From a methanogenic archaeon mixed culture ISO4-G1 (lineage in GTDB: Archaea; Thermoplasmatota; Thermoplasmata; Methanomassiliicoccales; Methanomethylophilaceae), in NCBI GenBank assembly GCA_001563305.1, contig CP013703.1, positions 1,039,773 to 1,103,772 on the forward strand: a stretch of DNA of 64,000 nucleotides, given 5' to 3'. The notes under the pieces were generated by a model. It saw only the letters and a list, made by a program, of their open reading frames with translations. It ran no database searches and was not told where the DNA came from. This document shows positions 12,652 through 64,000 of the stretch, in pieces (within the stretch, counting starts at the first letter, position 1; every line of letters begins with the position of its first letter). Both the position numbers and the translations under genes were made by a program.

Positions 12652-12766
12652 GGAACAAATTGTATCCGTTTCTAATCTTAAAACTGTCCCTCGCCGTTTT
12701 CCCGCTTTTGTCCCTGTAGGGACAGCCCGGTCTCTGACGGCACATTATCAGTACCGTAGGAACAGT

Positions 12767-16124: not shown

Positions 16125-16190
16125 AGGGGCAACGTCATCAAGACATTTAATGTTTAGAAAAGAAGGATGGGCCTTGCGGCCCTGAAACGT

Positions 16191-16517: not shown

Positions 16518-16588
16518 TGTTATCAGGACTCACAAACAGGGACGAGGATATAAAACAATCCTATCGGAGTTTCGGAATATCCACGCAT

Positions 16589-24714: not shown

Positions 24715-27700
24715 TGAAACAGAACACGGTTCTAAAGACCTCTGCTTTGGTAGCGATCCTCGTGGTAACATCTCTCTTCCTGTTCGTGCCAGAGTTGGAT
24801 GCAGATGGTGCATACATCCTCATCGACAAAGGAGACGGAGACACCTATTGGTATTCCGGAACCACAGAGACAGTCGCTGATTCATTCAGTACGGCCGCCC
24901 AATCCCTGGGATTGGACCTGAACATCGACGGTTCTAAAATAACTGTTGACGGAGTATCTTCGATTACCATCGGAAGCCAAACCGTATCCTGGAGAATCTA
25001 TCAGTGGGGGGATGGATGGGTCGACGTCACATCTTCTATCGATATGAGCTCCGCGCCCACATCATCCATGGCCATCGGGTTGTATCCCGCGGGCACAACC
25101 CCTACCGAGACGCCCGCGTTCATGGACTCATGGACCCAGGTCCGCGGAAACGCCTCAATGACAGGTATACAGAATGCCAATCTGGATTCCGAGAAGACAA
25201 TGGAGAACGTACTAGCATGGTCAAGAGGGGATAACGACTACATCACCGGTTGCGTACTCGTGGCCCGTGAGCATGTCTATGGATTCTTCAACGGCGGATA
25301 CATGAACACCCAAAGTACCCCTGCATTGTTCTGCTTCAACAGATTTACGGGAGAGACAGAGTGGATCGTTAACGTTCCTGCAGGAGTCGGATATGAGACC
25401 ATGTCAGGCTGTATAGTCGGCGATTACTACTATCTCCCGACCAGTTACGGATACATCTACAGGATTCCACTGGATAACCCAGGTGAGGCCTCATACTATG
25501 TCCAGATGTCCTCAAGGCTCATGGTAGATGAGGACAAGATGCCTTCAGTGACTTCCGTGAAATATAAGGCAACAGGGGAAGGCACCTACCATGATGCCCC
25601 TCTGGAGATTATGGACACTAACGCTTTCGATATACCAGTCAGCATCGGATCTACCTATGACATCCAGATATCGGATAGTAGCAGAACCTACAACGGGACA
25701 TTAACCGTCAACAACGAAGATGCACTCGGGGTAAAAATAACCGGAAATACCGAAGAAGACAAGAGTCTCATCGGAGACTACTCCTCTCGCATAAGCTATT
25801 CGTATTCCGAAGTTACAAAGACATTCATCTCGAAGACCAGATCCCCGAACATGGAAGGGCGCACGATATACAACACTGGGCCCGCTTCCATCACATACTA
25901 CGGGGGCGCACTGTTCTTCGGCACCAGTTCAGGATACACCTATGCCCTGGATTTGGATCTAAATACCCTGTGGAAGACCGACGTTAGGAGTCAAAACTAC
26001 TACGATTCTGTCATGATTTGTGATGACAGAGTATTCGTGGGAACTTACAGCGGAAAACTGTACGCATTAGATGTCTCCACTGGAGAGATCAAAGCATCGG
26101 TAACAGCAGCCTCCTACCCATCCACCGTCTACGGTGACGGAGGAAGAGTCTGCACGCCTGTGAAAGTGGATGACATTCTATTCTTCTCATCATCCGACGG
26201 ATTAGGGATGAACAGTACCCAGGGAGGATTCTCTGCATACACATTCAAAAACGATTCGTTCACGAAGATCATGTCCAACACCGACTATGGTCAAGCCTCA
26301 ACATACATGACAGTAGTGATAAATACTGAATTCAAAGGAGTCTACTTTACCACAGATTACGGTCTGATGAGACTGTCCACCGATATGCAACTCGAGATCA
26401 TCAATGAGAAGATGACGGGAGTACGTGCATCCCCAGTGCTTGTCAACGGCGATACTCTCCTAATGCAGGATTACGCCTATGCCAAGAACAACGTGGGCGG
26501 ACAGATGTACAGAGTGACCCTCGATGGTACAATCGAAGGACAATACCAGAGGCCCAGTGAGGTGGATCAGTGGACTATGAGCCCAATCACGGCCATAGGC
26601 GAGTACCTGTACGGCGGAACAGATAATGGGTTCTTCATACTGGAAGGGAAAATGCCCGAAGTCAAAGATGATTCGGGCACCGGAGGGATCAATCCTCTAT
26701 GGATTGCTTTGGCGATAATCGCAGTTATAATCAACATACTGCTCATCATAAGCTTCTTCCTAGCCAAGAAGAGCAACATGTCGACGGGAAAATACATCGA
26801 ATCAAAATTCTCGAGGATCAGCGGATTCCACAACGACTCCATGTCAAAGACGCAGGCAAACAAACGTCGTCTATTGTTCGTCCTGATACTTGGAATCATA
26901 ATCATGCTTATCATGTTCATATGCTGTCTGGCATATGGGCCTTCGATGAGCCTCTCGCCCATAGATGCTTTCTCCAATCTGATATCCGCTATACAAAAAG
27001 GTGGAGAAGGATTGACTCTGTCCGAACTTGTTGTGTACGAATCGCGTCTACCTCGTGCGATAGCCGCGATTGCCGTAGGACTGGGATTAGCAGTAGCCGG
27101 TTGCATATATCAAGCTGTCATCCGTAACCCGATGGTGGACCCGTACATAATGGGTGTTTCATCCGGAGCAGGAACCTTCGCGGTTGCTGCCATAGCGAGC
27201 GGATTCACATTCTTTGGACTTCTGGATAACTCTGAATTCATGATTCCTGTCCTCGCGATTGTCGGTGGACTGCTCGCGTTTGGACTCACCATGCTTCTTG
27301 CCTCCAAGGCAGGGAACACGGCCACAGGGTATGTGCTTGCAGGAGTTGTTATCGGATTGGCGTTCACATCAATCCAGACGGTCATTTTGACAACATCTGA
27401 TTCGGAAAAGCTCCACAGTGCGATATCTTGGCTGTACGGAAGCTTCACCAGTGTCGATTGGGGAACCGTTTGGCTGATATTCTTCCCTGCACTGTTCCTA
27501 TCACTGACTTTCTTGATCTGGGCCAAGGAGCTGAATCTTGTTCTTCTGGGCGACGATAACGCACAACAAATGGGTCTGAATGTCAAAAAATTCGATGCCC
27601 TGATGCTCATACTTGCATCGGTCCTGACATCTGTCTGCGTCGCATTTGTGGGAATCATCGGATTTGTAGGACTGGTCGTTCCTCACATCTGCCGTATGAT

Positions 27701-27893
27701 CTTGGGAGGAGATCACAGGCTGGTCCTACCTGCATCAATGGTCCTAGGTGCAGCATTGATGCTGCTTGCGGATCTGTTGGCAAGAATGCTAATGATCCCG
27801 TTGGAATTACCAGTCGGTGCCATCACCACTGTCGTCGGAGTACCACTGTTCGCTTATCTACTCATTAAGAGAGGGAGGATGTACAATGGATGA
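24711..27893 (+). CDS. fusion protein: signal/TM anchor - DUF4430-like domain - PQQ-like beta-propeller - TM - FecCD/BtuC-type ABC permease
   Basis: 1060 aa. Residues about 380-620 hold repeated YALD..TG..W/K PQQ-type blades. Residues about 700-1060 are a canonical FecCD permease (RLPRAIAAIAVG..., GVSSGAG...). Confidence 0.75.
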   Translation: MMKQNTVLKTSALVAILVVTSLFLFVPELDADGAYILIDKGDGDTYWYSGTTETVADSFSTAAQSLGLDLNIDGSKITVDGVSSITIGSQTVSWRIYQWGDGWVDVTSSIDMSSAPTSSMAIGLYPAGTTPTETPAFMDSWTQVRGNASMTGIQNANLDSEKTMENVLAWSRGDNDYITGCVLVAREHVYGFFNGGYMNTQSTPALFCFNRFTGETEWIVNVPAGVGYETMSGCIVGDYYYLPTSYGYIYRIPLDNPGEASYYVQMSSRLMVDEDKMPSVTSVKYKATGEGTYHDAPLEIMDTNAFDIPVSIGSTYDIQISDSSRTYNGTLTVNNEDALGVKITGNTEEDKSLIGDYSSRISYSYSEVTKTFISKTRSPNMEGRTIYNTGPASITYYGGALFFGTSSGYTYALDLDLNTLWKTDVRSQNYYDSVMICDDRVFVGTYSGKLYALDVSTGEIKASVTAASYPSTVYGDGGRVCTPVKVDDILFFSSSDGLGMNSTQGGFSAYTFKNDSFTKIMSNTDYGQASTYMTVVINTEFKGVYFTTDYGLMRLSTDMQLEIINEKMTGVRASPVLVNGDTLLMQDYAYAKNNVGGQMYRVTLDGTIEGQYQRPSEVDQWTMSPITAIGEYLYGGTDNGFFILEGKMPEVKDDSGTGGINPLWIALAIIAVIINILLIISFFLAKKSNMSTGKYIESKFSRISGFHNDSMSKTQANKRRLLFVLILGIIIMLIMFICCLAYGPSMSLSPIDAFSNLISAIQKGGEGLTLSELVVYESRLPRAIAAIAVGLGLAVAGCIYQAVIRNPMVDPYIMGVSSGAGTFAVAAIASGFTFFGLLDNSEFMIPVLAIVGGLLAFGLTMLLASKAGNTATGYVLAGVVIGLAFTSIQTVILTTSDSEKLHSAISWLYGSFTSVDWGTVWLIFFPALFLSLTFLIWAKELNLVLLGDDNAQQMGLNVKKFDALMLILASVLTSVCVAFVGIIGFVGLVVPHICRMILGGDHRLVLPASMVLGAALMLLADLLARMLMIPLELPVGAITTVVGVPLFAYLLIKRGRMYNG

Positions 27894-28689
27894 AACACCG
27901 CTTCTTGAGGTCAGAAACCTCAACAAAATCTACGACAATGGATACCATGCGGTACGCGACGTATCATACAAGCTACCGTCCGGCAAACTCGTCGGATTAA
28001 TCGGACCGAACGGGTGCGGTAAATCCACAATGATGAGGTGCATCAACAAAATGCACTCTATCACATCCGGTGATGTTCTGATCGATGGTATATCGGTCCT
28101 TGACCAGAATGTCACAGAGATTGCAAAACAAGTCGCCAATGTGCCAGCAGAACTGAAAAACAGCTTTGGACTCACCGTTTATGAAACGGTCATGTTAGGC
28201 CGCTACCCGTATCTGAGGAACCTTTGGTGGGAGACCAACGAGGATGAATCGGATGTCATCGATGCCATGAAGAAATTTGGTGTCGACCACCTTCAAGATA
28301 GGCAGATTAATATGCTCTCATCAGGAGAGATGCAGAGAGTACTGATTGCCAAGGCATATGTTCAGAACCCCAGATTAATGCTGGTCGATGAACCAACATC
28401 ACACCTTGACATGAAGTACAAACTGAACGTCATGGAATATTTGCGTGCAATGGTACGTCAGGATATGACGGTTCTTGTCGCGGAACACGATATTTCCCTT
28501 ATGGCAAGATATTGTGATCTCTGCATCATCATGAAGAAAGGAGAGTTAGTGACGATAGGAGATCCGAAAGAGGTCATCACAGAAGAGTTAGTGCGCGATG
28601 TCTACGATGTCGTAGCCAATGTGGGCGTGGACAAAGATGGAGAAATATACGTCCTACCAAAAAGATTCGTAGGAAATTACGAACTATGA
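27886..28689 (+). CDS. ABC transporter ATP-binding protein (FecE/BtuD-like)
   Basis: Walker A GPNGCGKST, signature LSSGEMQRV, Walker B LMLVDEPTSHLD. Start MDETPLLEV overlaps the permease stop. Confidence 0.85.
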   Translation: MDETPLLEVRNLNKIYDNGYHAVRDVSYKLPSGKLVGLIGPNGCGKSTMMRCINKMHSITSGDVLIDGISVLDQNVTEIAKQVANVPAELKNSFGLTVYETVMLGRYPYLRNLWWETNEDESDVIDAMKKFGVDHLQDRQINMLSSGEMQRVLIAKAYVQNPRLMLVDEPTSHLDMKYKLNVMEYLRAMVRQDMTVLVAEHDISLMARYCDLCIIMKKGELVTIGDPKEVITEELVRDVYDVVANVGVDKDGEIYVLPKRFVGNYEL

Positions 28690-51434: not shown

Positions 51435-53051
51435 TCACTGGACCAATCTCAGGGAGTCGTACTTATAGACTTTCTTGGGGCAACTGAACTGGCATCTGTA
51501 GCATGCGGTTCCGAGACAGTTCTTGGTCTGTACCACGATCTCGTTGTCGTCCATGACCTTCAGTGCATGCTCGGGGCATTCGTTCTCGCATTTCTTGCAG
51601 CCAATGCAGCCTTCCATGTATCCGCGAAGCTCGGTCCCGATGTCGTGAAGGATGAAGAGCCCTCTGTCACCCAGATCAGGGATGTCACGCTGGACCATCC
51701 TGTGGACCGTGGGGTTACCGGTCGGTTTCGGCAGCTCCTGTATGCCGGCGATCGCGTTGTTCCTGTTGTACATCTCCATGCTCATGCCCTCGTCGCAGAC
51801 CGCGAGTTCCTGGGTGTAGATCTGCTCGAACACCTCGTCCCCGGCGAACATTATGTGGTTGGCCCTGATGCCGTTGGCTATGTCCTGGAGCTTATCCAGC
51901 AGCTCTGGGTCCCTGAGGATGTCCGTAGCCATTGCCAGCGATGTATTCCCGTACTGGTAGATCGTGTTGCACGAAGGGGGCAAGAGTCCCACCTTCCTGG
52001 CCTTGACAGCATCCACGTATGTACCGGATGCGCCGGCCATGTACATGATGTCCAGATCGCTGAACTTGATGCCTGCGTGCTCCAGAAGGGTGAAGTGACC
52101 GGCCCTCATCGCACCGATGGCCTTCAGGGCCTCCGATATGTCGTGTGAATCGATGGTGATACCATCCTGCAGATGGAGCAGCCCGTCGCTGGTGTCGATC
52201 TTCCCCTTCCTCCACAGATGGGCCTCGAGAAGGGCGGATACGGCCGCGATCACACCTGTTCCGGTGATACCTTTGGCCTTCCCGCTCATCGGACCCTCCG
52301 GCGTGACGGTCTCCAGGGCTATGTCGACCCTGTCGCCGTTCTCAGGTATTATATCGTCATTCAGGACCTTGCATATGTACTGGAAGTCGTACTCCAGGTC
52401 CGAGATGGCCCCGGGCCCGGCGAGCATACCGCATCTTATGGACTGGCCTTCCATGGCAGGTCCGGCCGCGGCCGAACCCGTGTATATGTCGTCGCCGACC
52501 TTCAGCGCCATCTCCGCGTTCGTACCGTAATCCGTGACGAGGCAGTTCTCCTTCTGCTCGAGGAAACCGCTCTTGTACATCATGGCCAAGGCGTCCGCAC
52601 CGATCTCGTGCCTGATGGCCGGAGGGACCAATAATTCGCATCCGTCCTTGACATCGAGACCGACGTCCACCGCGGAGAATGTACCAGCATCCCTCTTCTG
52701 GGCGACTATCCCTCTTGCCTTGTGGGCGTTGTCGCCTGCGAACGCAAGATCGTCCACGGGGATCCCCTGGAAGAGCGACAGCTGGATAGGGTTTCCGCAG
52801 ATGCTTACCCTCTCGACCTTGTTCAGATCGACGCCTAGGGTCCTGATCAGCTTGTTAACGGTATCCATCAGGATGTTGTGGGCCGTCTCAGTGCCGTTGT
52901 TGATGCAGAACGTAAGGTGATCCATGATGTTGGCACCCGGCAAGGGATGACATTCCGTGACAGATGTCGAAAGGATCCTGCCGTTCGAGAGATCGACCGC
53001 ATGACCCCTTGTTCCGCTCGTACCTATATCCAGGGAAATACCGTAACTCAT
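51435..53051 (-). CDS. ramA: RamA-like corrinoid reductive activation protein (ASKHA ATPase + 2x[4Fe-4S] ferredoxin domain)
   Basis: 538 aa with a C-terminal CIGCKKCENECP...CYRCQFSCP. Positioned between mtaB and the cobW-like gene. Confidence 0.7.
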   Translation of the reverse strand: MSYGISLDIGTSGTRGHAVDLSNGRILSTSVTECHPLPGANIMDHLTFCINNGTETAHNILMDTVNKLIRTLGVDLNKVERVSICGNPIQLSLFQGIPVDDLAFAGDNAHKARGIVAQKRDAGTFSAVDVGLDVKDGCELLVPPAIRHEIGADALAMMYKSGFLEQKENCLVTDYGTNAEMALKVGDDIYTGSAAAGPAMEGQSIRCGMLAGPGAISDLEYDFQYICKVLNDDIIPENGDRVDIALETVTPEGPMSGKAKGITGTGVIAAVSALLEAHLWRKGKIDTSDGLLHLQDGITIDSHDISEALKAIGAMRAGHFTLLEHAGIKFSDLDIMYMAGASGTYVDAVKARKVGLLPPSCNTIYQYGNTSLAMATDILRDPELLDKLQDIANGIRANHIMFAGDEVFEQIYTQELAVCDEGMSMEMYNRNNAIAGIQELPKPTGNPTVHRMVQRDIPDLGDRGLFILHDIGTELRGYMEGCIGCKKCENECPEHALKVMDDNEIVVQTKNCLGTACYRCQFSCPKKVYKYDSLRLVQ

Positions 53052-53161: not shown

Positions 53162-54562
53162 TCAGAGTCCGTAGTTCTTCATGTTGAAGTTGGGGACGAT
53201 GTCCTTGTACTCCTTTGCTGCCCACTCGACGAACTTGTCCTCGTCATCGGGGAGTGCGGAGAGCTTCTTGTTGATGTCCTGGAGGGTCTCGAGCTGCTTG
53301 GTGGTGAGTCCGAGCTCCTTGGATTCGTAGCCCTTAAGGAGGATCTCGACTGCCTTGGTTCCGGCGGCCTTGGCCCTGAGGTAGAGGTTGTCACCGTACT
53401 GGGCGATTGCCTTTCCAATCTCGTATGCGTGGTCGTACGCGAGGATGTATGCCTCGGGTCCTCTGTACCTGTCAGAGTACATGTACATGTCCCTGAGGGT
53501 CTTCTCCTGCTTGAGCTGGATCGCGGTGTTCATGAGTGAGGCCTCGTATCCGATCGATCCGAACCAGCACTGGACGGAGGTTCCTCCGAACTCGGGGTGG
53601 TACTCGACGGACTCGTTGGACCACAGGTCACAGCACTGGGCGATGAGGTTACCCTGCAGATCGCAGTGTGCGCACTGGCAGTTCTTTCCCTCCTGTGCGG
53701 TGGGCTTTCCTGCGATGGCTTTGACGATGGGTCCCTCGTAACCGCAGTCCTTGTCGGGACCGACGGCTCCGGCCTCCCAGGCGCAGAGCGTCCTTGCGGC
53801 GGAGATTGCACGGGTGACGGCGGAGAAGGTCCTCTGGACATCCTGGTCCATCATTCCTCCGGCCATGAACATGGAAACGTTCGCTCCGGAACAGTTGGTG
53901 TCTCCTCCCGCAACGCAGTGGTTCTTCTTCGCGATGTCGACGAGCTGCTCCCAGAGCCAGGTCATATCGATGGATCCGAGGTAACCGACTCCGAACAGGA
54001 ATGCGACGATGTCTCCGTTGGTGACTGCGTAATCTGCGAACTCCTTTCCTCCGACAGACTCGATGGAGAGGTTGTTGCATCCGTTCTCACATGCGATGTC
54101 CGCACACTCGAACAGCTTCTCGGGATAGGCGTGGGCGGAGTCCATGCCGGGCCTGAGTCCGTGGTCGGCCTCACGCTGGTCGGGGATGGTCTGCCTGGTA
54201 CCGCAGTTGAGTCCGTACTCCTCGTGGTACTTCTCGCACATCTCCTGCTGTCCCGCGACGACGGGTGCGGAGAGCTTGGCCTGGTTCATCTGGGAGACCC
54301 ACTCGGTCTCGAGCTGGACATTGGGGAATCCGACTGTGAGTGCCCTGTTGAGGATGTCCTTGGTGATGTAGTCCACGTACTCCTTTCTGAGCCTCTCGGG
54401 ATCCTTCTCGGTTCCGGGCCTGGGTGCGTAGTTGATCTCGGGGATGACGTATCCGGCTCCGATCTTCAGACCGAATCCGTAGGACACGGGATTCTTCGAG
54501 AAACCGAAGACCATGTCGTCTGCACAGTCGTATGCCATCTTTGTGTATCTTGATACTGCCAT
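53162..54562 (-). CDS. mtaB: methanol:corrinoid methyltransferase MtaB
   Basis: 466 aa, collinear with Methanosarcina MtaB from the N-terminus (MAVSRYTKMAY...EINYAPRP...) to the C-terminus (ENYG). Confidence 0.9.
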   Translation of the reverse strand: MAVSRYTKMAYDCADDMVFGFSKNPVSYGFGLKIGAGYVIPEINYAPRPGTEKDPERLRKEYVDYITKDILNRALTVGFPNVQLETEWVSQMNQAKLSAPVVAGQQEMCEKYHEEYGLNCGTRQTIPDQREADHGLRPGMDSAHAYPEKLFECADIACENGCNNLSIESVGGKEFADYAVTNGDIVAFLFGVGYLGSIDMTWLWEQLVDIAKKNHCVAGGDTNCSGANVSMFMAGGMMDQDVQRTFSAVTRAISAARTLCAWEAGAVGPDKDCGYEGPIVKAIAGKPTAQEGKNCQCAHCDLQGNLIAQCCDLWSNESVEYHPEFGGTSVQCWFGSIGYEASLMNTAIQLKQEKTLRDMYMYSDRYRGPEAYILAYDHAYEIGKAIAQYGDNLYLRAKAAGTKAVEILLKGYESKELGLTTKQLETLQDINKKLSALPDDEDKFVEWAAKEYKDIVPNFNMKNYGL

Positions 54563-54563: not shown

Positions 54564-55346
54564 TCACTGACCCCCTACAATTGCATCCCATTCTTCTCTA
54601 ACCTGTTTCCACGTGTAACCCTGCCTGATCTTCTCTGCGATCAAGGGGGTCTGAGGTGCCTTCTCGGAATAGATTCCGAGGTCGTAGGAGTTAGCGTACT
54701 CCCTGTTGACTGCACCGCCGCATCCCATCAGGGGAATCTCGATTCCCTTCTCCATGAGGATCTTGGCCTCGGCAGGGAATGCGGACATGGTCGTGGTCAT
54801 GAGTGCGGTTCCGCTTGCGAACAGGGGCTTGACCTCCTCGACCTTTGCGATGAAGTTTGTGATTGCCACATCACGTCCCATGTCGATGACGTCGTATCCG
54901 GAGGACCTGACCATGACGGCCGCGATGTTCTTTCCGATGTCGTGGGGGTCTCCCTCGGCAGCGTGCATGACGACGGTTCCCTTGGACTCTCTTCCGCCGG
55001 GGACCATCTTGACTGCGATCGCGATTCCGATCTCCATTGTCTTTGCTGCCATCATGATCTCGGGAAGGAAGTAGACGTGCTCTGCGTAGAGCTTTGCGAC
55101 ACATTCCATACCTGCGACCAGTCCATTGTTGATGACGTCGAGGGGATCTTTCTGTTTGAGGGCCTCCGTAACGACGGGGACCACTGTCTTGAATCTCATA
55201 TAGAGAATCTCTTCTGCTACCTGCCTTAATACAGGATCTTCGGGCAAGAGTTTCTTTGCCATCTGCTCGGGTGTGAGTGATACCTGAGTCTCGATGTCGT
55301 AACGCTTGAGGACCTTTGTGAAATCTGCACCTTCCTTACTAAGCAT
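54564..55346 (-). CDS. mtaC: methanol corrinoid protein MtaC (B12-binding)
   Basis: 260 aa with a DxHxxG cobalamin-binding motif (GDPHDIGKN) and an N-terminal cap helix domain. 1-nt gap to mtaB. Confidence 0.9.
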   Translation of the reverse strand: MLSKEGADFTKVLKRYDIETQVSLTPEQMAKKLLPEDPVLRQVAEEILYMRFKTVVPVVTEALKQKDPLDVINNGLVAGMECVAKLYAEHVYFLPEIMMAAKTMEIGIAIAVKMVPGGRESKGTVVMHAAEGDPHDIGKNIAAVMVRSSGYDVIDMGRDVAITNFIAKVEEVKPLFASGTALMTTTMSAFPAEAKILMEKGIEIPLMGCGGAVNREYANSYDLGIYSEKAPQTPLIAEKIRQGYTWKQVREEWDAIVGGQ

Positions 55347-55607: not shown

Positions 55608-57125
55608 ATGTCATCCATAGTCTATTTGAAAAATCCGAGGTCCAATACTATTTATGCCTATCTCAATGAATCCGTTTGGGATCCAGAAAGGAAGAAGACG
55701 GTATACAGGAGGAAGTGCGTAGGGCATGTGGACCCGGAGACTGGGGAGATCGTTCCCAACAGGAAGACGTTGGTGAAAGACAGTCCGATCGTGAAATCCA
55801 GATACCTGTGCGCCATCTATGACAGGGTATCCGAGGACATGCACCTTACGGAGACACTCAAACTTTCCTTCCCGGACCACTGGAAGAAGATCCTTTCCAT
55901 AGCCTACTACCTGCTATCAACCAACGAACCGCTCTCGTTCTGCAAACAATGGTCGGAACAGCATAAGACCCCATACAACCAGACCATCAGCAACAATCTG
56001 ATCAACGACCTCCTGACATCCATCAACCCCAATGGGATCTCCCTTTTTTTCACACTCTGGAAACTGCGTGTCCAGCCTGTGGAAACATTCACCGCGTCCA
56101 TCAATATCGGAGGCCACAGGATCAACCTCAGCGAGTTCTCAAAAGACTATATGGAGATCAGCAACGACTTCGACAACAGTCTGAAGATGACCATGTACTT
56201 CTCCACTAAGAGCAACGTCCCGATTTGCTATCAGCTGTCCGACCCCATCACCGGGCGCAAGATCGGCGATTACGATGTCTCCCCCAACAGCTTCAGCAGG
56301 CTGTCGTCCTTCATCGACCATACCCGCGGTGACAACGTGGACCCTTCACTGGTGCCGTATGCGGACAGCAACATCACCGTCCGCACCTACCCCAACAACG
56401 ATTTCGTCAGGAACCTTGTCGAGAAGGTCGGATCGACCATCACCAACCCTGAGAACTACAGGATCATCCTGGGAACCCCGATGTTCATCGAGAGCTTCAT
56501 GCAGCACGTCAGCGGGAAGAAGTACTATGTCCACATCTTCTTCGACCCGAACCAGGCCGTGACGGACCTGTCCGCATTCATCTCGGTTATCAACATGTGC
56601 AAATACGAACTCGAGATGGATTCCCCTGTGGAGAGGCATCAGCAGTTGTACGACGAGTTCCTGATAGTCAAGGAGGATGAGAAAGGGAACACTGTGGTGG
56701 AACTGAACAGTGAGGCTATCATGAACCACAACAAGTTCCTTGGATACAACGTCCTGATATCGAACTTCACGGGTAACGCCTCCACTGCCATCGTCCCGTT
56801 CATCCAGAGGTCCAGCGTCTCAAGGAGGTTCGATTCGATAAGGAACGAGTACGACAGCACTACCATGAACCTCTTCACGGAGACCAACTATCTGAGCAGG
56901 GTCTTCCTACAGTTCATATCACTGATCCTCAGGGTCGGCGTCCTGAACGTGATGAACACGAAGAAGCTCAACAGGACCATGACCTTCAAGGAGGTGGTCA
57001 TGGAGATATCCAACCTCAGGACCGTGAAGATTCCGGGGGTAAAGAGACCCCAGAACACGTTCGCCAGCGATGAGCAGCTCCGTATCCTGAGGGCTTTCGA
57101 CGTGCCCATCGACGATGAGAAATGA
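55608..57125 (+). CDS. IS1634/IS4-family transposase-like protein (possibly degenerate or domesticated)
   Basis: N-terminal IVYLKN..TIYAYLNESVWDPERKK..RRKCVGHVDPETGEIVP resembles the conserved N-terminal block of IS1634-type transposases, and GYNVLISN resembles their internal motif. A clean DDE triad could not be confirmed by eye. Composition looks AT-shifted. Confidence 0.4.
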   Translation: MSSIVYLKNPRSNTIYAYLNESVWDPERKKTVYRRKCVGHVDPETGEIVPNRKTLVKDSPIVKSRYLCAIYDRVSEDMHLTETLKLSFPDHWKKILSIAYYLLSTNEPLSFCKQWSEQHKTPYNQTISNNLINDLLTSINPNGISLFFTLWKLRVQPVETFTASINIGGHRINLSEFSKDYMEISNDFDNSLKMTMYFSTKSNVPICYQLSDPITGRKIGDYDVSPNSFSRLSSFIDHTRGDNVDPSLVPYADSNITVRTYPNNDFVRNLVEKVGSTITNPENYRIILGTPMFIESFMQHVSGKKYYVHIFFDPNQAVTDLSAFISVINMCKYELEMDSPVERHQQLYDEFLIVKEDEKGNTVVELNSEAIMNHNKFLGYNVLISNFTGNASTAIVPFIQRSSVSRRFDSIRNEYDSTTMNLFTETNYLSRVFLQFISLILRVGVLNVMNTKKLNRTMTFKEVVMEISNLRTVKIPGVKRPQNTFASDEQLRILRAFDVPIDDEK

Positions 57126-57487
57126 ATAAAACGATTGAATCCCTGCGAACCCTCATGTCGGACTGCAAACTATGCGTGGATGCCGGTGTGTGCAAGATGA
57201 TCACCACCATCACGGCCAAGACAGACGATATCGGCATGGTCGAACTGGATGTCAAGAGCGACTGCCCCCACATCCTGAAGATGTGCTGGCATCTGGAACC
57301 CATCAGCCCCTATTCGGAGGTGGAGTCCGAGTTCTACAAGTCCGAGATATACAGGCTAGCGCAGGAGGCGCCCCTCCCGCATACTGCCTGCCCCGTACCC
57401 TCCGCCATGATCAAGGCAATAGAGGTCGCAGGTGGCCTCGGGCTCAAGCGTGACGTTCACATCACGTTCATGGACCCCGAGGAATGA
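57122..57487 (+). CDS. hypothetical Cys-containing protein (121 aa), translationally coupled to the upstream gene
   Basis: ATGA overlap with the stop of the transposase-like gene. CxxCxxxxxC cluster near the N-terminus. Confidence 0.4.
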   Translation: MNKTIESLRTLMSDCKLCVDAGVCKMITTITAKTDDIGMVELDVKSDCPHILKMCWHLEPISPYSEVESEFYKSEIYRLAQEAPLPHTACPVPSAMIKAIEVAGGLGLKRDVHITFMDPEE

Positions 57488-57590: not shown

Positions 57591-58571
57591 ATGGACAGCA
57601 ACGTACGCCCGGATTCTATGGAACGCATAACGACGCCTGCGCTGGCAGACGCCTTCATCAACGAACAGGTAGAGGCACTCAGGAAACAGATCGGTGACGG
57701 AAAGGTGCTGCTGGCACTGTCAGGAGGAGTTGACTCCTCCGTCGTGGCCGCACTCCTCATCAAGGCCATCGGTAAGAACCTCACATGCGTGCACGTCAAC
57801 CACGGACTCCTCCGCAAGGGTGAGGCCGAGCAGGTCATCGAAGTGTTCCGCAACCAGATGAAGGCCAACCTCGTGTACGTTGACGCGACCGACCGTTTCC
57901 TCGACAAGCTCGCAGGAGTCTCCGACCCGGAGCAGAAGAGGAAGATCATCGGTAAGGAGTTCATCGATGTCTTCGAGGAGGAGGCCAACAAGATCGAGGG
58001 CGTCAAGTTCCTCGGACAGGGGACCATCTACCCTGACATCCTGGAGAGCCACGGAGTGAAGGCCCACCACAACGTCGGCGGACTTCCGGAGAAGTTCGGA
58101 TTCGAGCTCGTGGAACCCGTCAAGCTGCTGTTCAAGGACGAGGTCCGCGTGGTCGGAAAACAGCTGGGCCTCCCGGACAACATGGTCTACAGGCAGCCCT
58201 TCCCCGGACCCGGACTCGGTGTCCGCTGCACAGGTGCGATCACACGCGACAGGCTCGAGGCCGTCAGAGAGTCCGATGCCATCCTCCGTGAGGAGTTCGC
58301 CAAGGCGGGACTCGAGGGCAAGGTCTGGCAGTACTTCACCGTCGTCCCCGACTACTGCTCCACCGGAGTCCGCGATGGAAAGCGTCTCTGGGACTGGCCC
58401 GTCATCATCCGTGCCGTCAACACCAAGGATGCCATGACCGCGACGGTAGAGGAGGTCCCCTGGCCACTCCTGAAGAAGATCACCGACAGGATCCTCAGCG
58501 AGGTCAAGGGAGTCAACCGTGTGCTCTACGACCTCTCGCCCAAACCCTGCGCCACCATCGAGTGGGAATGA
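57591..58571 (+). CDS. guaAB: GMP synthase, ATP-pyrophosphatase subunit (archaeal split guaA, subunit B)
   Basis: PP-loop SGGVDSS, with conserved dimerisation and C-terminal blocks. True start may be an internal Met. Confidence 0.85.
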   Translation: MDSNVRPDSMERITTPALADAFINEQVEALRKQIGDGKVLLALSGGVDSSVVAALLIKAIGKNLTCVHVNHGLLRKGEAEQVIEVFRNQMKANLVYVDATDRFLDKLAGVSDPEQKRKIIGKEFIDVFEEEANKIEGVKFLGQGTIYPDILESHGVKAHHNVGGLPEKFGFELVEPVKLLFKDEVRVVGKQLGLPDNMVYRQPFPGPGLGVRCTGAITRDRLEAVRESDAILREEFAKAGLEGKVWQYFTVVPDYCSTGVRDGKRLWDWPVIIRAVNTKDAMTATVEEVPWPLLKKITDRILSEVKGVNRVLYDLSPKPCATIEWE

Positions 58572-58656
58572 ATATCATCGGCGGGCACCAGCCCGCCATC
58601 CAAACCCTTTCGACATTGTTTTATCGGCTGTCGGCGATTTCTCTACCGGCGATATC

Positions 58657-59199
58657 ATGGGAGAGCTCGAGGACATCCGCAGGGAACTGGGATTGGTTCA
58701 GATCTACACCGGGAACGGCAAAGGGAAGACCACGGCCGCATTGGGTCTGGCACTTAGGGCGAGCGGACGCGGGCTGAACGTCCTTTTCCTCCAGTTCCTG
58801 AAACCCGACGCAGGCTACGGGGAGCAGAAGGCATGCTCCGGGATCGATAAGATCACCATGATCCCGATGGGGGCCGACCACTTCATCGGAAAGAACCCCT
58901 CGCAGGAGGACATCGACATGGCACATGACGCACTGTCGAAGTCGGAGGAACTGATAGGTTCCGGCAGATACGACGTGGCGATCCTCGACGAGGCAATAAA
59001 TGCCGTCCGTCTAGGGCTTATTACTTCAGAAGAACTCATAGCATCATTGAAAAGACGCCCCAAACACGTCGAGATCGTCCTCACCGGAAGGGGAATGACC
59101 CCCGAGCTCGAGGAGTATGCCGACCTCATCACCGAGATGAGACTCGTGAAGCACCCCATGGACAAGGGGATCGATGCGAGAATGGGAATCGAATACTGA
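58657..59199 (+). CDS. cobA: ATP:cob(I)alamin adenosyltransferase (CobA/CobO/BtuR family)
   Basis: About 180 aa with the P-loop-like YTGNGKGKTTAALG characteristic of the CobA family. Confidence 0.8.
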   Translation: MGELEDIRRELGLVQIYTGNGKGKTTAALGLALRASGRGLNVLFLQFLKPDAGYGEQKACSGIDKITMIPMGADHFIGKNPSQEDIDMAHDALSKSEELIGSGRYDVAILDEAINAVRLGLITSEELIASLKRRPKHVEIVLTGRGMTPELEEYADLITEMRLVKHPMDKGIDARMGIEY

Positions 59200-59208
59200 A
59201 AGAAGGAA

Positions 59209-59282
59209 TGGGGTCGGGAGAGGGGATCGAACCCCCGTATGCGGATCTGCAGTCCGCCACATAGCCACTGTGTTACCCCGAC
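59209..59282 (-). tRNA. tRNA-Cys (anticodon GCA) with encoded CCA
   Basis: Acceptor GTCGGGG/TCCCGAC, D-stem CACA/TGTG, anticodon stem GCGGA/TCCGC with loop CTGCAGA, T-loop TTCGATC, 3' CCCA. Confidence 0.75.
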
Positions 59283-59375
59283 GCTGGACAGTAGCATTAT
59301 TTGACCCTATATAACACTAACGTCATCGCTTTTTCGGCATCAATCGAGAATCGATTTTGCCACACGTTCCGCCAT

Positions 59376-60389
59376 CTAGCCCAAGGAATCGATGCCTATG
59401 CGCTCGTTCCAGAACAGGCGCCCGCTGACCGCCGCCTGAGGGTCGGGGATGAACGACACCTTCTCAGGTACCAGGCCCCTGAATATCGGATCGCCTATGA
59501 CACACTTGTATCCTGAGGATACGAGTTCCGTGAGATGCTCCTCGGACCTCACCTTCAGGTCCCCCTCCTCGGAGAAACTGTCGCTGAGCGTGAAGAATGT
59601 GGCCACGTCCGCATCGACACCCTTGTGCCTGAGCTCGTTGCGTATAACATTGGACCTAACCTGCTCGCCGACCACAAGGATCTGGCGGTCGCCGTTCCCT
59701 TCGGCCTTGGTCCCCGGCATGAACGCCTCGTATTCGACACCGAATTTGGACCTCATTATCCTGGCGAACGGTTCCGCGGACGATGACAGCAGGATGTTCC
59801 TTTCTGCGTTTCTGATTCCCGACAGGACCCTGATGTCGGAACCTGGGAATGTCACGGCCGCTCTTACATCGGCGGAGATCGCGGACATCTCCTCTGCGGT
59901 GTATTCCAAGGGACTGAATCCCAGAAGGGCCGTTCCGGACCCTTCGCCTTCGGGAACGATCTCCAGTATCCTCTTCATGGCTTTGGCCATACCGTCGTGG
60001 TACGTACCGTACCCGTTCGTCTCTATGGATACCGCCGGGATCCCGAACTCCTTCTTCAGCCTCCTGCACATGATGTCCGTGTCTATTCCGACCAGCGACG
60101 ACACCGGTGTGTGGACGAACCCTATGAATCCCGTATCCTTAGGGATGTCGAGATTCCTGAACTCCTCCATCCAGTCCCTGTCGCCGAAGATAACGTCCTT
60201 CTCGTTGAGCTCGAGCTGCAGTACGTTTCCCGGGAGTTCCGCCCAGCGGGGCTCGTCGAAGCGGACGTAGTTCCCCATGCAACCGTTAGGGCAGCATATG
60301 ACCGCCAGACCTCCGCAGTCGCGGACTGCCGATGCGGCCGAGGAATAATCGGTGGCGAACAACGGCAGTGTGCTGTACAGTCTTCCCAT
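59376..60389 (-). CDS. nitrogenase component-1-like oxidoreductase (NifD/K / BchN/B / CfbD family), 337 aa
   Basis: Oxidored_nitro-like Rossmann-type layout with an N-terminal Cys cluster (AVICCPNGCMG). Adjacent to a paralog with a 1-nt overlap. Confidence 0.55.
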   Translation of the reverse strand: MGRLYSTLPLFATDYSSAASAVRDCGGLAVICCPNGCMGNYVRFDEPRWAELPGNVLQLELNEKDVIFGDRDWMEEFRNLDIPKDTGFIGFVHTPVSSLVGIDTDIMCRRLKKEFGIPAVSIETNGYGTYHDGMAKAMKRILEIVPEGEGSGTALLGFSPLEYTAEEMSAISADVRAAVTFPGSDIRVLSGIRNAERNILLSSSAEPFARIMRSKFGVEYEAFMPGTKAEGNGDRQILVVGEQVRSNVIRNELRHKGVDADVATFFTLSDSFSEEGDLKVRSEEHLTELVSSGYKCVIGDPIFRGLVPEKVSFIPDPQAAVSGRLFWNERIGIDSLG

Positions 60390-61609
60390 CAGATCACCAG
60401 ATTCGCATTTTCGACCTGACGGTGGAAGTCGGTCGGCGACTCGATCGATTCCTCGATCTTGTCCATCAGTCTCTCGATCCCGTAGAATCCGAACAGACCC
60501 CTGTCCTGCACGATGTCCACCGAGCGCTGCGCCATGGTGAAGTACGCGGCATTGAACCCTATCGCTATGTCAACGCTCCCGCACTTCCCTACCATGGAGG
60601 ACATCGCCGGATCTCCGCAGTCATAGACCTTCAGGTCCGGGATCCTGGCCTGCAGATACTCCAGATCCTCCCTCTCGGACTTCGATATCCCCGAATGGAA
60701 CACGGAACGCACATCGAAACCGTAATTCACCAGGCTCCTGGCGAGGTCGAACGGCCTCTCGGTGGCCATGCTCCCAACCGATACGGTCATACCCTTGACC
60801 ATATCGGATACCTTCCTGACATGGTCCTCTGCGCTCTTGGCGTACTTATCGAGATCGAAGCTGACCCCGAGCGATTCGGACAGCCTGCGGTAATGGTCCT
60901 TCACGCGGTCCACGGAATATGTGGGGAGCAACGGAATGTGCCTTGCGTTGCTGATCTCCTTGGCAGCACTCATCGCCTTCACGGACAGAACGAGGTTCGT
61001 GCCTGCCATCCCCATACGGAGGAAATCATCGTAGGTTCTGCACAGCGTGAGATGCTTGACCTCTTTCACCCCGCATCCCTTCAACAACGGGTACAGTTCG
61101 CATTCCGCATCTGGTGCCGCATCGGAGCCGATGAGGTTCACGATGTCGTCCCGGACATCCGTGAAATCCAAAAGACCCAGTATCTTCTTTTGTGTGGCGA
61201 CCGCGGGCGGATTGTGGGTGTCCGCGGCCACAGGGTTCATGTCCACCACGAGCACCTCTGTATCCGAATTCTCCGATTTGACCCTCTGTCTGAGACGCTC
61301 GTTGTCCAGACCTGAAATGTACGTCGAACAGCAGACGTATATCAGGAGTATCCTTGGGCGTCTGCTCCGGATGATCTTCGAGGCTGCCTCGACGACGCCG
61401 TCCTCGGCCACGCCCAGGATTACCTCGCTCTCGTCCATCACATAGTAGCTCATCCTGTCGCTGTATCCTGCCAGGTGAGCGGATATTGATATGTGCCTGC
61501 CGCAGGCATTGGAGGATGCCATCAGGATCTGGCTCTCCGGTATGTCCGAACCGACGCGTACGATGCCGTAACCGCCGTCGGTCGCCGGACAGAAGCACAG
61601 CCTGGACAT
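60389..61609 (-). CDS. nitrogenase component-1-like oxidoreductase paralog, 406 aa (alternative start at 61522)
   Basis: Same family by overall pattern. If the start is M30 (61522), it forms a TGATG overlap with the upstream ABC ATPase stop. Confidence 0.55.
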   Translation of the reverse strand: MSRLCFCPATDGGYGIVRVGSDIPESQILMASSNACGRHISISAHLAGYSDRMSYYVMDESEVILGVAEDGVVEAASKIIRSRRPRILLIYVCCSTYISGLDNERLRQRVKSENSDTEVLVVDMNPVAADTHNPPAVATQKKILGLLDFTDVRDDIVNLIGSDAAPDAECELYPLLKGCGVKEVKHLTLCRTYDDFLRMGMAGTNLVLSVKAMSAAKEISNARHIPLLPTYSVDRVKDHYRRLSESLGVSFDLDKYAKSAEDHVRKVSDMVKGMTVSVGSMATERPFDLARSLVNYGFDVRSVFHSGISKSEREDLEYLQARIPDLKVYDCGDPAMSSMVGKCGSVDIAIGFNAAYFTMAQRSVDIVQDRGLFGFYGIERLMDKIEESIESPTDFHRQVENANLVI

Positions 61610-62394
61610 CGCAGCCTCCCGATCGGAATTATGAACCTGTACGTCTCGCCGTTCTCGGTCATGGAGCCTATCCTGGCCTTGACCCTGAACACGTTCATGA
61701 GGTTCTCCTCCGTGATCACATCAGCGGTGTTTCCGAATATGTAGTTGCCCTTGCCGTCCAGCATGAGGGTCTTGTCCGAGATGCGGAGAGCGTGCTCCGG
61801 ATAATGGGTGTTGATTATGCATGTCATCTCGCCAGACAGTTCCTCGATCAGATCCATTATCCTCAGCTGGTTGCTGTAGTCCAGATTGGATTCAGGCTCG
61901 TCGAGCACGAGGATCTCCGGTTCGGACACGAGTGCTCTCGCGATCATGACGAGCTGCATCTCTCCCCCGCTCAGGGTGTTGTAGCGGCGGTCCGCAAGAG
62001 ACGCGATGTTGAGTCTCTCCAGATAGGAGTCGACGATGGCCTCGTCGGCCTCCGAGGGGGAATCATACATGCCGATGTGGCCTGAACGGCCCATCATGAC
62101 CATCTCCCTGACCGTGTAGTCGAAGGTGGCACTCTTCATCTGCGGAACATATGCCAGATGCTTGGTCAGCTCCCTGGGGGAGAACGTGCTTATGTCCCTG
62201 CCATTGAGTTCGGCCTTCCCCGAGGACCACTTGTAGAATCCCATCACGCACTTGAGGAGCGTGGTCTTCCCGGCCCCGTTGGGTCCGAGGATGGTGAGGA
62301 CCTGATTGTCCCCTACCTCGAAGCTTATGTCGGAGAACAGGACGCGGTCCCCGAACCCGAAACGCCCGTTCGTGACCTTCAAATCCTTGACCAT
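61522..62394 (-). CDS. ABC transporter ATP-binding protein (FecE/BtuD-like)
   Basis: Walker A GPNGAGKTT, signature LSGGEMQLV, Walker B LVLDEPESNLD. Start MVKDLKV overlaps the permease end. Confidence 0.8.
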   Translation of the reverse strand: MVKDLKVTNGRFGFGDRVLFSDISFEVGDNQVLTILGPNGAGKTTLLKCVMGFYKWSSGKAELNGRDISTFSPRELTKHLAYVPQMKSATFDYTVREMVMMGRSGHIGMYDSPSEADEAIVDSYLERLNIASLADRRYNTLSGGEMQLVMIARALVSEPEILVLDEPESNLDYSNQLRIMDLIEELSGEMTCIINTHYPEHALRISDKTLMLDGKGNYIFGNTADVITEENLMNVFRVKARIGSMTENGETYRFIIPIGRLRCPGCASVRRPTAVTASYASVRTYRRARS

Positions 62395-63380
62395 GACCTT
62401 TGCCTCCTTATGAACAGTACAGCGAATATGGGCGCACCGATGAGCGCCGTGCAGATGGACAGCGGGATCTCGGCCGCGATGAGGCTGCGGCATATGGTGT
62501 CGCAGACCATCAGGAACGTCGCCCCCAGGACCATCGATACGGGGATGACACGGCTGTTGTCAGAACCGACGACCAGCCTTGCGATGTGCGGGATGACCAA
62601 TCCTATCCACCCGATCTGACCGCACAACGAAACCGACGTGGCGACCAACAGCGTGGCGGCCAGCATGAATGTCCAGCGCAGCTTGGCCGGATCGTGCCCC
62701 AGGGCCCTGATCTCCTCGTCATCGAGCGATATTATGTTGAGTCTCCACCTCAGGGCGTATATCACGATGGCTCCTATCAGGAACAGCGGCAGGGCGTTGA
62801 GTATCGTATCGTACCCCTTCCCGGAAAGGCTTCCCATGAGCCAGTAGGTGATATCCGGCAATTGTGTCAAAGGGTCCGCTATGTACTTTATGAGGGCGAT
62901 CAGAGCGTTGAACACCCCTGCTATGATGATTCCTGCCAGTACTATGGACAGAATGGATGATGAATGCGATGATTTGCAGATGAAGAACACGACCGCCAAT
63001 GCGACCAGTCCCATCGCCAATGCGAGGAACTGCATGGGGAATGCCGAGAGACCGATGAAGATCGCGAGGGCGGCTCCGAATGCCGTGGCTGACGACACTC
63101 CGATGACGTCAGGCGATGCCAGCGGGTTGGAGAGTGTGGACTGGAACACGGTACCGGCCATGGCCAGCGCACAGCCGACGATGGCTGACATCACTATGCG
63201 CGGGAACCTGACCTCCATCACCACCGTCTCCTCCGTGGAACCGGTGGGGGATACTATGAACGACCATATGCACTCCACCACATGATCGAAAGGTACGGAG
63301 TACCTGCCGACCCCGAGTAGTAGGAACCCGAGGACGACAGGCACAGCGACCAGTAAGAGTATTTTGTTCTCGTATTTCAT
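62379..63380 (-). CDS. FecCD/BtuC-family ABC permease
   Basis: 333 aa, about 9 TM helices, with RFPRIVMSAIVG and GVSSATAFG motifs. Confidence 0.85.
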   Translation of the reverse strand: MKYENKILLLVAVPVVLGFLLLGVGRYSVPFDHVVECIWSFIVSPTGSTEETVVMEVRFPRIVMSAIVGCALAMAGTVFQSTLSNPLASPDVIGVSSATAFGAALAIFIGLSAFPMQFLALAMGLVALAVVFFICKSSHSSSILSIVLAGIIIAGVFNALIALIKYIADPLTQLPDITYWLMGSLSGKGYDTILNALPLFLIGAIVIYALRWRLNIISLDDEEIRALGHDPAKLRWTFMLAATLLVATSVSLCGQIGWIGLVIPHIARLVVGSDNSRVIPVSMVLGATFLMVCDTICRSLIAAEIPLSICTALIGAPIFAVLFIRRQRSWSRI

Positions 63381-64000
63381 CAGTGGATGACCGCGGAAGT
63401 CGGATCAGGGTATATGAATTTTGATACCATCTCATCCGACGCATCATATCCGAACATGTCCTTGATCCATTTCTTGGCAACATTCTCGATGTCAAGGGAT
63501 TCGAACAGGTCTGGATGCAGAACCTTCGCTAGGAACTGGAGTGTGACTCCCGCTTCCAGGGAGGGGGCGTACGAGAAATATGTCTCCGAGGGGAACACGT
63601 AAACGTGACTGTCCTGAGCGGCCTTCACGGATGCCCAGTTCTGTCCGTCGATCTTGTTCTCGATGATATCCGCCGGCATCTTCCCGGAACTGTTGGCGAA
63701 GAAGATGTATTCAGGATTCCATGCGAGGATCTGATCCATATTGACGTCCTGGAGTCCGGTAAGGGACGCGGCTACGTTCTTCGCACCGGCAGCATTGAGC
63801 CAGTACTCGGAGTAGTGTCCGCTTCCGGCGACCTTGACCGTTCCGTTCGCATTGATAGCGAAGATGATCATGACCTTGGGTTTGTCAGCGTCCGCCACGG
63901 TATCGATCTTCTCCTTGACGAGGGCCTTCGCCGAATTGTTGTAGTCGACCAGTTTCTTGGTGGGCCCGTCGTTCTTGAAGATGTCCTTCATGAGCTTGAG
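63380..64000 (-). CDS. periplasmic binding protein (BtuF/FhuD-like), 5'-truncated by window edge
   Basis: C-terminal 203 aa of a class III SBP (NPEYIFF, KVMIIFAINANG). The N-terminus lies beyond 64000. Confidence 0.6.
   Translation of the reverse strand, partial: LKLMKDIFKNDGPTKKLVDYNNSAKALVKEKIDTVADADKPKVMIIFAINANGTVKVAGSGHYSEYWLNAAGAKNVAASLTGLQDVNMDQILAWNPEYIFFANSSGKMPADIIENKIDGQNWASVKAAQDSHVYVFPSETYFSYAPSLEAGVTLQFLAKVLHPDLFESLDIENVAKKWIKDMFGYDASDEMVSKFIYPDPTSAVIH

Follow-up and report, generated by a model that had tools for sequence, protein, structure and literature searches.

A nitrogenase-like subunit pair encoded within a chelate-importer operon of the rumen methanogen ISO4-G1: a candidate reductase of imported nickel chelates

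The DNA analysed here (the window) is a stretch of 64,000 nucleotides (nt) from ISO4-G1, a rumen methanogen belonging to the Methanomassiliicoccales, whose genome measures 1.59 Mb; sequence beyond position 64000 was read from a strain contig that is 98–99% identical (L014). Near the end of the window lie two genes, termed A and B below, which specify a NifD/NifE-like and a NifK/NifN-like protein and share one operon with the genes of an ATP-binding cassette (ABC) importer of the chelate type. Their products are proposed to form an importer-coupled nitrogenase-like reductase that would process an imported nickel chelate or nickel tetrapyrrole and that, in the clade to which ISO4-G1 belongs, would be powered by CfbC, the NifH-like protein associated with cofactor F430; this proposal was given a probability of ∼0.45, that is, a little below even. 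The genes of the operon and their Pfam matches are as follows.

59376–60389, minus strand: gene B, NifK/NifN-like subunit of 337 amino acids (aa); PF00148, 56.8 bits, E = 2e-15
60389–61609, minus strand: gene A, NifD/NifE-like subunit of 406 aa; PF00148, 83.1 bits, E = 2e-23
61522–62394 (open reading frame, ORF, up to 62493), minus strand: ABC ATPase; ABC_tran (PF00005), 114 bits
62379–63380, minus strand: FecCD/BtuC-type permease; PF01032, 286 bits
63380–64000 (hit region 63380–63991), minus strand: class III binding protein of the Peripla_BP_2 type, partial; PF01497, 58 bits

The gathering cutoff of PF00148 is 28.6 bits. The initial annotation of this region had listed a cobA gene, a tRNA-Cys, a Nif-like gene pair and an importer, all of which were found with the same coordinates. 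The genes for the binding protein and the permease overlap by 1 nt (TGATG), those for the permease and the ATPase by 16 nt, those for the ATPase and A by 88 nt, and A and B again by 1 nt (TGATG). Since these junctions overlap, the genes for the binding protein, permease, ATPase, A and B constitute a single, translationally coupled minus-strand operon of five genes. The presence of PF01497, PF01032 and PF00005 in one operon identifies the importer as one of type II (BtuCD/FecCD class). Depending on the start chosen for A, the overlap with the ATPase gene had been given as either 1 or 88 nt, and this choice proved to be a real one. The 406-aa start (88-nt overlap) is favoured as the true start because the first 29 residues of A are conserved throughout the family, and because the motif GGGAGG lies 5 nt 5′ of that ATG; these residues include an FC(P/S) cysteine that is invariant within the importer-linked clade.

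The probable start of the ATPase is Met34 of its ORF (position 62394), which renders a protein of 290 aa and agrees with the gene call in L014; its best NCBIfam matches are all ATPases of chelate importers, every one of them below cutoff. The length of this protein varies: in ISO4-G1-type strains (including L014 and L016) the ATPase frame runs 88 nt into A (window positions 61522–61609; 290 aa), while in loci L001, L006 and L033–L035 it specifies 257–264 aa and ends where A starts or shortly before. The window contains the C-terminal ∼206 codons of the binding protein (203 aa in the Peripla_BP_2 call), the rest lying beyond its end. The full-length ortholog (L014:7057–8178) has 373 aa and an N-terminal membrane anchor, and is 99% identical over the shared part. 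The best solved relatives of the binding protein are the uncharacterised periplasmic binding protein 4ovk and, in second place, HI_1472; CeuE-type nickel-binding proteins were matched weakly. Exact matches in the ISO4-G1 annotation were found for subunit B (AMK14091.1, 'nitrogenase component 1 type oxidoreductase') and for the permease (AMK14094.1, 'iron ABC transporter permease').

Subunits A and B reach the cutoff of no curated NCBIfam subfamily. The nifE model (TIGR01283, cutoff 505) gave 43.8 bits for A and 25.4 bits for B, the CfbD model (TIGR03282, cutoff 268) gave 17 bits for B and no match for A, and the BchY and BchN models gave 23.3 and 19.8 bits for A (the cutoffs for BchN, BchB, BchY and BchZ are all >400). 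When profiles were compared, NifE was the best sequence match for both subunits (E = 1e-16 and 2e-30), and the MarD chains scored below NifE in the comparison made with A. The AlphaFold2 models of A and B (predicted local distance difference test values of 83.6 and 84.4, respectively) show the three-domain alpha/beta fold of NifD/K, NifE/N and BchN/B; as models, they matched NifK, BchN, NifE/N and MarD/K in Foldseek with a probability of 1.00, template-modelling (TM) scores of 0.6–0.72 and 12–18% identity. The ranking was essentially flat across NifK, BchN, NifEN and MarDK, and no single nearest solved relative emerged. BLASTP shows no significant similarity between A and B (E = 0.09), whose homology was detected by hhalign (probability 96.5%, 15% identity). 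The two proteins form a deep, separate branch of the nitrogenase-like superfamily and, as judged from these comparisons, are best described as an ancient heteropair of D-type and K-type paralogs distinct from CfbD.

A distinct heteromeric nitrogenase-like enzyme is what the initial annotation had suspected, and the competing explanation that it named, in which the F430 gene cfbD would have been duplicated in tandem to yield a heteromeric CfbD, was refuted by these comparisons. Both genes do belong to PF00148 in a methanogen, and B does match the CfbD model weakly, but BLASTP comparison with an authentic CfbD of the Methanomethylophilaceae (L026:10789–11862) gave E values of only 0.078 for A and 0.22 for B, the kinship between A and B is visible at the profile level only, and the true cfbD of relatives sits in a separate cfbC-cfbA-cfbE-cfbD-cfbB operon, so that a duplication can be virtually dismissed.

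When 1.84 billion cluster representatives were searched exhaustively, 613 family matches were obtained at E ≤ 1e-3, 405 of them at E ≤ 1e-10, so that the family is of modest size. Natural D-K fusion proteins occur in the family, which confirms that both chains act in concert. Some 22 family proteins have 750–1000 aa, and many D-K fusions were seen; another variant (P0067, 552 aa) consists of a D-like chain fused to an SBP_bac_6 solute-binding domain, and a stand-alone SBP_bac_6 gene precedes the NifH-like gene in a locus from Tissierellia (L004).

When the conserved cysteines were mapped, as the initial annotation had recommended, Cys36 and Cys94 of A were found to be invariant in all 148 diverse family representatives; Cys7, in an N-terminal F/Y-C motif, is an additional cysteine of the importer-linked clade. 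B has a single conserved cysteine, Cys37, placed in a GC(M)GN motif, which is invariant in 21 of 21 aligned B-family sequences and has an equivalent in all 22 aligned K-halves of D-K fusions. A-Cys94 aligns with Cys124 of NifE, and B-Cys37 with Cys44 of NifN and with the HGxxGC cysteine of NifN/NifE, while A-Cys36 and A-Cys7 were matched to NifE C62 and C37 by motif and spacing only, the N-terminus of the model being of low confidence. In the profile alignment, B carries Thr-Pro-Val at the place of the Cys-Cys of A. No cysteine is found at the position that binds the L-cluster or the iron-molybdenum cofactor (FeMo-co) in NifE (C250) and NifD (C275); A has Ser209 there, a position that varies among the 148 representatives. 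This pattern of conserved cysteines predicts that the subunits are bridged by one [4Fe-4S] cluster of the NifEN or BchNB type, located at their interface, and that a complex cofactor has no place in the enzyme. The label 'Mar-type', which had also been proposed for the pair, did not hold, since the ligands of both the P-cluster and the L-cluster are missing; an assignment to Group IV (Mar/Isr-type) was likewise rejected, as B has one conserved cysteine, an equivalent of C275 is lacking and a NifB-like gene was found in none of the loci examined.

The linkage between the pair and an importer is not confined to ISO4-G1. A six-gene module, consisting of a NifH-like gene (H), the D and K genes, and genes for a binding protein, a FecCD permease and an ATPase, recurs in Methanospirillum, Candidatus Methanoplasma glyptotermitis, two metagenome-assembled genomes of Oscillospiraceae and one of Tissierellia, a human-gut contig and two further metagenome contigs; two Rhodoplanes species also have the module, with the importer arranged divergently. 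An importer was found beside the pair in every locus examined that had enough flanking DNA, across Archaea and Bacteria, so the synteny with a chelate importer pointed out initially is conserved in relatives. In Rhodoplanes, a gene for a TonB-dependent outer-membrane receptor lies immediately upstream of H-D-K, which implies that the cargo is a bulky chelate. Other neighbours with a role in metal handling include FeoB, a ZnuA/ABC-3 system, P-type ATPases, a cation diffusion facilitator transporter and a G3E GTPase; the latter, in the Tissierellia module (L004), scores best as HypB/UreG. An Rfam search at gathering thresholds detected no riboswitch in six bacterial loci, and lent no support to control by a cobalamin, molybdenum cofactor (Moco) or NiCo riboswitch.

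Several additional arrangements were observed around these importers. In L021, three pairs of a Peripla_BP_2 gene and a UbiE-type S-adenosylmethionine-dependent methyltransferase gene surround the module (4045–5939, 12753–14638 and 14684–16826), and a UbiE-type methyltransferase gene also adjoins the binding-protein gene in L001 (6305–6910). A P-type (E1-E2) ATPase adjoins the module in Candidatus Methanoplasma (L010, 12326–14233), and another adjoins the cfb operon in a contig of Methanomethylophilaceae, beside a TetR-family regulator (L026, 13328–15268); an ATPase of this kind could be a nickel or cobalt pump. The window itself encodes a second chelate-type importer on the plus strand (23350–28689), made up of a Peripla_BP_2 protein of 454 aa, a FecCD fusion and an ABC ATPase; its FecCD permease is part of a protein of 1060 aa whose N-terminal region is weakly beta-propeller-like.

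The absence of a NifH-like partner close to the pair, on which the initial annotation had remarked, was borne out. No NifH-like gene was found in the 64 kb window by tblastn with a module NifH-like protein (best E = 0.5), nor, as judged from L014, in the 7 kb that follow position 64000, where a further search had been advised. The operon also lacks such a gene at the orthologous loci of the clade, with identities of 47%, 53%, 60–61%, 72–74% and ≥95%. In a neighbour-joining tree, the H-less loci group in a single clade, whose sister is the H-bearing Methanoplasma and which is nested among lineages that contain H; the loss of H from the operon therefore appears as a single derived event.

The sole NifH-like gene near an H-less locus (L015, ∼2 kb away) is cfbC. 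It was first assumed to be a relocated module H, an assignment rejected since over 120 close cluster representatives of this gene are spread across the Methanomassiliicoccales and a 79%-identical homolog heads a cfbC-cfbA-cfbE-cfbD-cfbB operon. In L015 (641–3530), cfbC is divergent from the importer-A-B operon, with an Asn_synthase-like PP-loop gene between them. CfbC is 53–58% identical to the H proteins of the modules, which are 55–79% identical among themselves, and all of these proteins keep the P-loop and both cluster cysteines. In the H-less clade, CfbC probably substitutes in trans as the electron donor to an A2B2 enzyme.

A pointer to the cargo is found 5′ of the operon. In L014, the binding-protein gene is preceded by GTAACAC-N13-GTGTTAt, an element that matches the signal published for nickel transporters under NikR control, GTGTTAC-[N13/14]-GTAACAC and its reversed form (Rodionov et al. 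2004, PMC545781). In L015, L001/L019 and Methanospirillum, the operon is again preceded by the GTAACAC core. The promoter of the operon in L033/L034 (a clade with 61% identity), which was fetched afterwards, contains tTAACAC-N13-GTGTTAt, and thus a perfect TAACAC-N13-GTGTTA as in L014; the probability of such a match arising by chance within 240 nt was estimated to be ∼1e-5. Unexpectedly, the half-site was also seen 45–100 nt 5′ of cfbC, and in total four lineages have such half-sites, or pairs of them, in front of this gene. The four include the cfbC promoters of strain BRNA1 and of another lineage, which were fetched after the hypothesis had been formed and contain GTAACAC-N24-GTGTTAC and a single AGTAACAC. 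In these prospective tests, half-sites recurred at the new cfbC promoters and the full inverted repeat at the new operon promoter. The GTAACAC 7-mer is rare elsewhere, with two copies in the window, neither of them in a promoter, and a scan of 396 kb gave only two independent matches with at most one mismatch, namely the L014 and L033/L034 promoters. The operon is probably regulated by nickel through this putative NikR operator. Operator-like elements of the form GTAACAC-N13-atATTAC were also seen ∼130 nt 3′ of B in L018 (3189) and L025 (1510); another FecCD-type gene (2870–3823) lies 3′ of the element in L025, which suggests that more importers belong to the same regulon.

Because a NikR-type inverted repeat precedes both this operon and the cfb operon, the cargo would most likely be a nickel complex, and possibly a nickel tetrapyrrole. 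The HypB/UreG-like GTPase of the Tissierellia module and the weak CeuE-type similarity of the binding protein are further hints of nickel. The role in tetrapyrrole processing or salvage that had been suggested for the pair thus received support as regards a link to F430 and nickel, through the operator shared with cfb, while tetrapyrrole salvage would be a step beyond it. In the reaction sequence envisaged, the importer would take a bulky metal chelate into the cell, the A2B2 enzyme would bind it in the cytoplasm, a NifH-type ATPase (CfbC in trans in the H-less clade) would supply low-potential electrons, and reduction of the chelate would render the metal or the macrocycle usable.

A number of points weigh against this proposal. 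The clade is known from sequence alone. The release of nickel has no obvious need for a reduction unless the ligand is a macrocycle. The published NikR motif is a comparative-genomic prediction made for δ-proteobacteria (PMC545781); matches with two half-sites at the canonical spacing are confined to the H-less clade, none being present at the bacterial modules, in Methanoplasma or in L021, and the sites 5′ of cfbC vary in spacing (N15, N24 or a lone half-site) and are non-canonical. The promoter and operator of the window operon itself lie past position 64000 and were read from L014, and tblastn with E. coli NikR matched nothing in the DNA examined, which for this genome amounts to 64 kb. Similarly, the search for H in ISO4-G1 covers the window and, as read from L014, the next 7 kb. 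Two features of the bacterial loci point to iron instead, namely a FeoB gene directly 5′ of H in the human-gut locus (L022) and the resemblance of the Rhodoplanes TonB-dependent receptor to heme-receptor families above all others.

Iron, a NifEN-like scaffold and corrinoids are possible alternatives, in that order. If the system served iron acquisition, a heme or a ferric siderophore would be imported and its ring, or the Fe(III), reduced by ATP-driven electrons, freeing iron under anoxic conditions. Besides the two features just mentioned, the permease is annotated as an iron transporter in the source genome, and all module binding proteins weakly match the heme-binding IsdE. For the receptor, the best scores came from the models of heme/hemoglobin receptors (242 and 238 bits), those for siderophores, copper and B12 being lower. 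However, every such hit falls below the curated cutoff, the FRAP and NPNL motifs of heme receptors were not found in the Rhodoplanes protein, and matches to the Fur box (TGATAATNATTATCA) were no commoner than in shuffled sequences at any locus. Moreover, the operator fits NikR rather than Fur and is common to the nickel-dependent cfb operon, and the GTPase of the Tissierellia module is of a nickel type. Iron is therefore a possible, though considerably less probable, cargo.

Somewhat more doubtful is the idea that the system serves the salvage, or piracy, of environmental nickel tetrapyrroles (F430, its oxidised forms or its precursors) derived from neighbouring methanogens. The importer would bring in the macrocycle and A2B2 would reduce it, CfbC providing the power in methanogens and a NifH-like protein of the module doing so in bacteria. 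In methanogens, usable F430 would be regenerated; in bacteria, the ring would be loosened and the nickel handed to HypB-type chaperones. If true, the system would provide the first example of a nitrogenase-like enzyme with an imported cofactor as its substrate, and also the first recycling route known for F430 or nickel tetrapyrroles.

The pair might alternatively act as a scaffold or maturase similar to NifEN, which would build or carry a metal cluster or cofactor from the imported metal and reduce no organic substrate. NifE being the best match for both profiles is consistent with this, as are a cysteine pattern like that of the [4Fe-4S] cluster of NifEN and the HypB-like GTPase in L004. The second-best solved relative of the binding protein, HI_1472, the molybdate/tungstate binder MolA, also speaks for a scaffold. 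A coupling of metal transport to cofactor assembly was in fact proposed for nitrogenase-like genes beside ABC transporters by Dos Santos et al. (2012, PMC3464626), who noted hydrogenase-maturation genes as neighbours in related clades. Against a scaffold stand the lack of a cysteine at the ligand position of the L-cluster and FeMo-co, of a NifB-like gene in the loci examined, and of a Moco riboswitch at the six bacterial loci; in addition, the TonB-dependent receptor indicates that the cargo is a bulky chelate and not a free ion or oxyanion, and methanogens of the ISO4-G1 type would seem to contain no known complex-cluster enzyme in need of such a maturase. A scaffold was consequently considered improbable. 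Molybdate or tungstate, the cargo that HI_1472 had brought to mind, was rejected as the leading idea in view of the TonB-dependent receptor and the missing complex-cluster ligands.

The corrinoid alternative requires a look at the DNA 3′ of B, where the following features were identified.

51435–53051: RamA-type corrinoid activator
53162–54562: mtaB
54564–55346: mtaC
55608–57125: transposase of the IS1634 family, its end overlapping the DUF6951 gene
57122–57487: DUF6951 gene
58657–59199, plus strand: cobA, within the ORF 58519–59199; Pfam CobA_CobO_BtuR, 200.8 bits
59209–59282, minus strand: tRNA-Cys, anticodon GCA

The initial annotation had regarded the pair as sandwiched between a corrinoid adenosyltransferase gene and a chelate importer, an arrangement of which the importer side is conserved and the cobA side is absent at every other informative locus. 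In corrinoid salvage, the importer would be the equivalent of BtuFCD and the enzyme would reduce or remodel corrinoids together with the cobA product. cobA lies only 177 nt past B, beyond the tRNA-Cys, the permease and the ATPase obtain scores with the models for BtuC and for corrinoid ATPases, and the host relies on corrinoid methyltransferases, with mtaB, mtaC and ramA present in the window. Yet cobA is convergent with the operon and not co-transcribed with it, and adjoins the pair in the window only, being absent at all other loci with enough DNA, the relatives with 47–74% identity included; the six bacterial loci have no cobalamin riboswitch, and the models for BtuF and BtuB give much lower scores than the alternatives. 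Since the adjacency is not conserved elsewhere and mta corrinoid genes are near, it is probably incidental, the position of cobA being better accounted for by the mtaB/mtaC/ramA corrinoid cluster at a distance of 4 kb. A function in corrinoid salvage was accordingly rated as improbable, a shade below that of a scaffold.

Finally, the pair could be a decaying remnant which, after the loss of H, is non-functional or binds the cargo with no redox chemistry. H is absent at all loci of the clade, and B of ISO4-G1 loses 12 residues to an in-frame TAG (59376–59378) at which a 99%-identical relative (P0012, 349 aa) has a Gln codon. Beyond this TAG, 11 codons (MAERVAKSILD) and a TGA are intact, relatives are 12 residues longer, and with this extension the gene would reach position 59340; in a pyrrolysine-decoding methanogen, the TAG might be either a nonsense mutation of recent origin or a site of UAG read-through. 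Orthologs with 47–60% identity, however, keep intact ORFs of conserved length, the cluster cysteines and the coupled junctions, the operator is kept 5′ of the operon, and these methanogens have CfbC, which is closely related to the lost H. With ligands, ORFs and operator all conserved, the remnant explanation is unlikely, more so than any of the functions above.

The pair can be compared with several known systems. Dos Santos et al. (2012, PMC3464626) described NifEN-like pairs beside ABC transporters, for instance Mlab_1040/1039 of Methanocorpusculum labreanum and Dhaf_1539/1540 of Desulfitobacterium hafniense. Judged by the pattern described, these resemble A and B in having two cysteines in the D/E chain (those of NifD C88 and C154) and one in the K/N chain (that of NifK C95), no FeMo-co ligands, an ABC transporter nearby and anaerobic hosts among Archaea and Firmicutes. 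The clade of the window differs in its extra N-terminal cysteine (3+1) and in having no NifH-like gene in the operon; the NikR-type operator, the link to a TonB receptor and the loss of H are not described in that paper. A literature search for a characterised importer-linked nitrogenase-like enzyme found only this 2012 description, so that the clade, noticed then, has been uncharacterised since.

The F430 proteins CfbC and CfbD share with A and B a simple, [4Fe-4S]-based nitrogenase-like architecture, an occurrence in methanogens, a relation to nickel and tetrapyrroles, and a related operator 5′ of the operon; CfbD, however, is a single homomeric chain encoded in a cfbC-cfbA-cfbE-cfbD-cfbB operon, whereas A and B are a heteropair encoded in an importer operon. 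NifEN has the bridging [4Fe-4S] cluster predicted for A and B, with three cysteines in the E-like and one in the N-like chain, but differs in sequence (44 bits for A against the nifE cutoff of 505), in having C250, and in its nifB and nitrogenase context. The dark-operative protochlorophyllide oxidoreductase (BchNB/ChlNB) and the chlorophyllide oxidoreductase (BchYZ, Group V) are heterotetramers with one inter-subunit [4Fe-4S] cluster that reduce a tetrapyrrole by means of a NifH-like ATPase. The models of A and B resemble BchN in structure (TM ∼0.68–0.70), but their sequence identity is 12–16% and the family models reach only 20–23 bits; they also lack a photosynthesis context, and their substrate is proposed to be imported rather than biosynthetic. 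The Group VI NflHDK proteins of Elusimicrobia (Méheust et al. 2020) are likewise a divergent pair that retains no more than four of the six P-cluster cysteines, lacks FeMo-co ligands and NifB, and has a proposed tetrapyrrole substrate; in this comparison, made by gene context and description, they differ in surroundings rich in radical-SAM genes in place of importer and metal-transport genes.

Nickel uptake systems under NikR control share with the operon the GTAACAC-N13-GTGTTAC form of the operator and the combination of a class III binding protein and a FecCD-type permease, with a TonB-dependent receptor in a Gram-negative carrier; examples are nikMNQO of δ-proteobacteria and, in Helicobacter, CeuE and FecDE together with the TonB-dependent FrpB4/FecA3. 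Unlike the operon studied here, the known nickel uptake systems include no nitrogenase-like enzyme, and nickel binding by the binding protein of this operon is a prediction.

A 2026 review of nitrogenase-like enzymes (PMC13474568) names the functions of the uncharacterised clades as a top challenge, finds gene context of little help so far, and gives no function for the clade of A and B. The context of this pair is unusually informative: coupling to an importer in both domains, a TonB receptor, a lost reductase gene and a shared nickel-type operator. It turns an orphan family into a testable hypothesis, with nickel chelates or F430-type macrocycles as candidate ligands, CfbC as the candidate electron donor and NikR as the candidate regulator. 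The carriers include abundant rumen and gut methanogens, in which a supply route for nickel or F430 of this kind would, if true, bear on methane mitigation.

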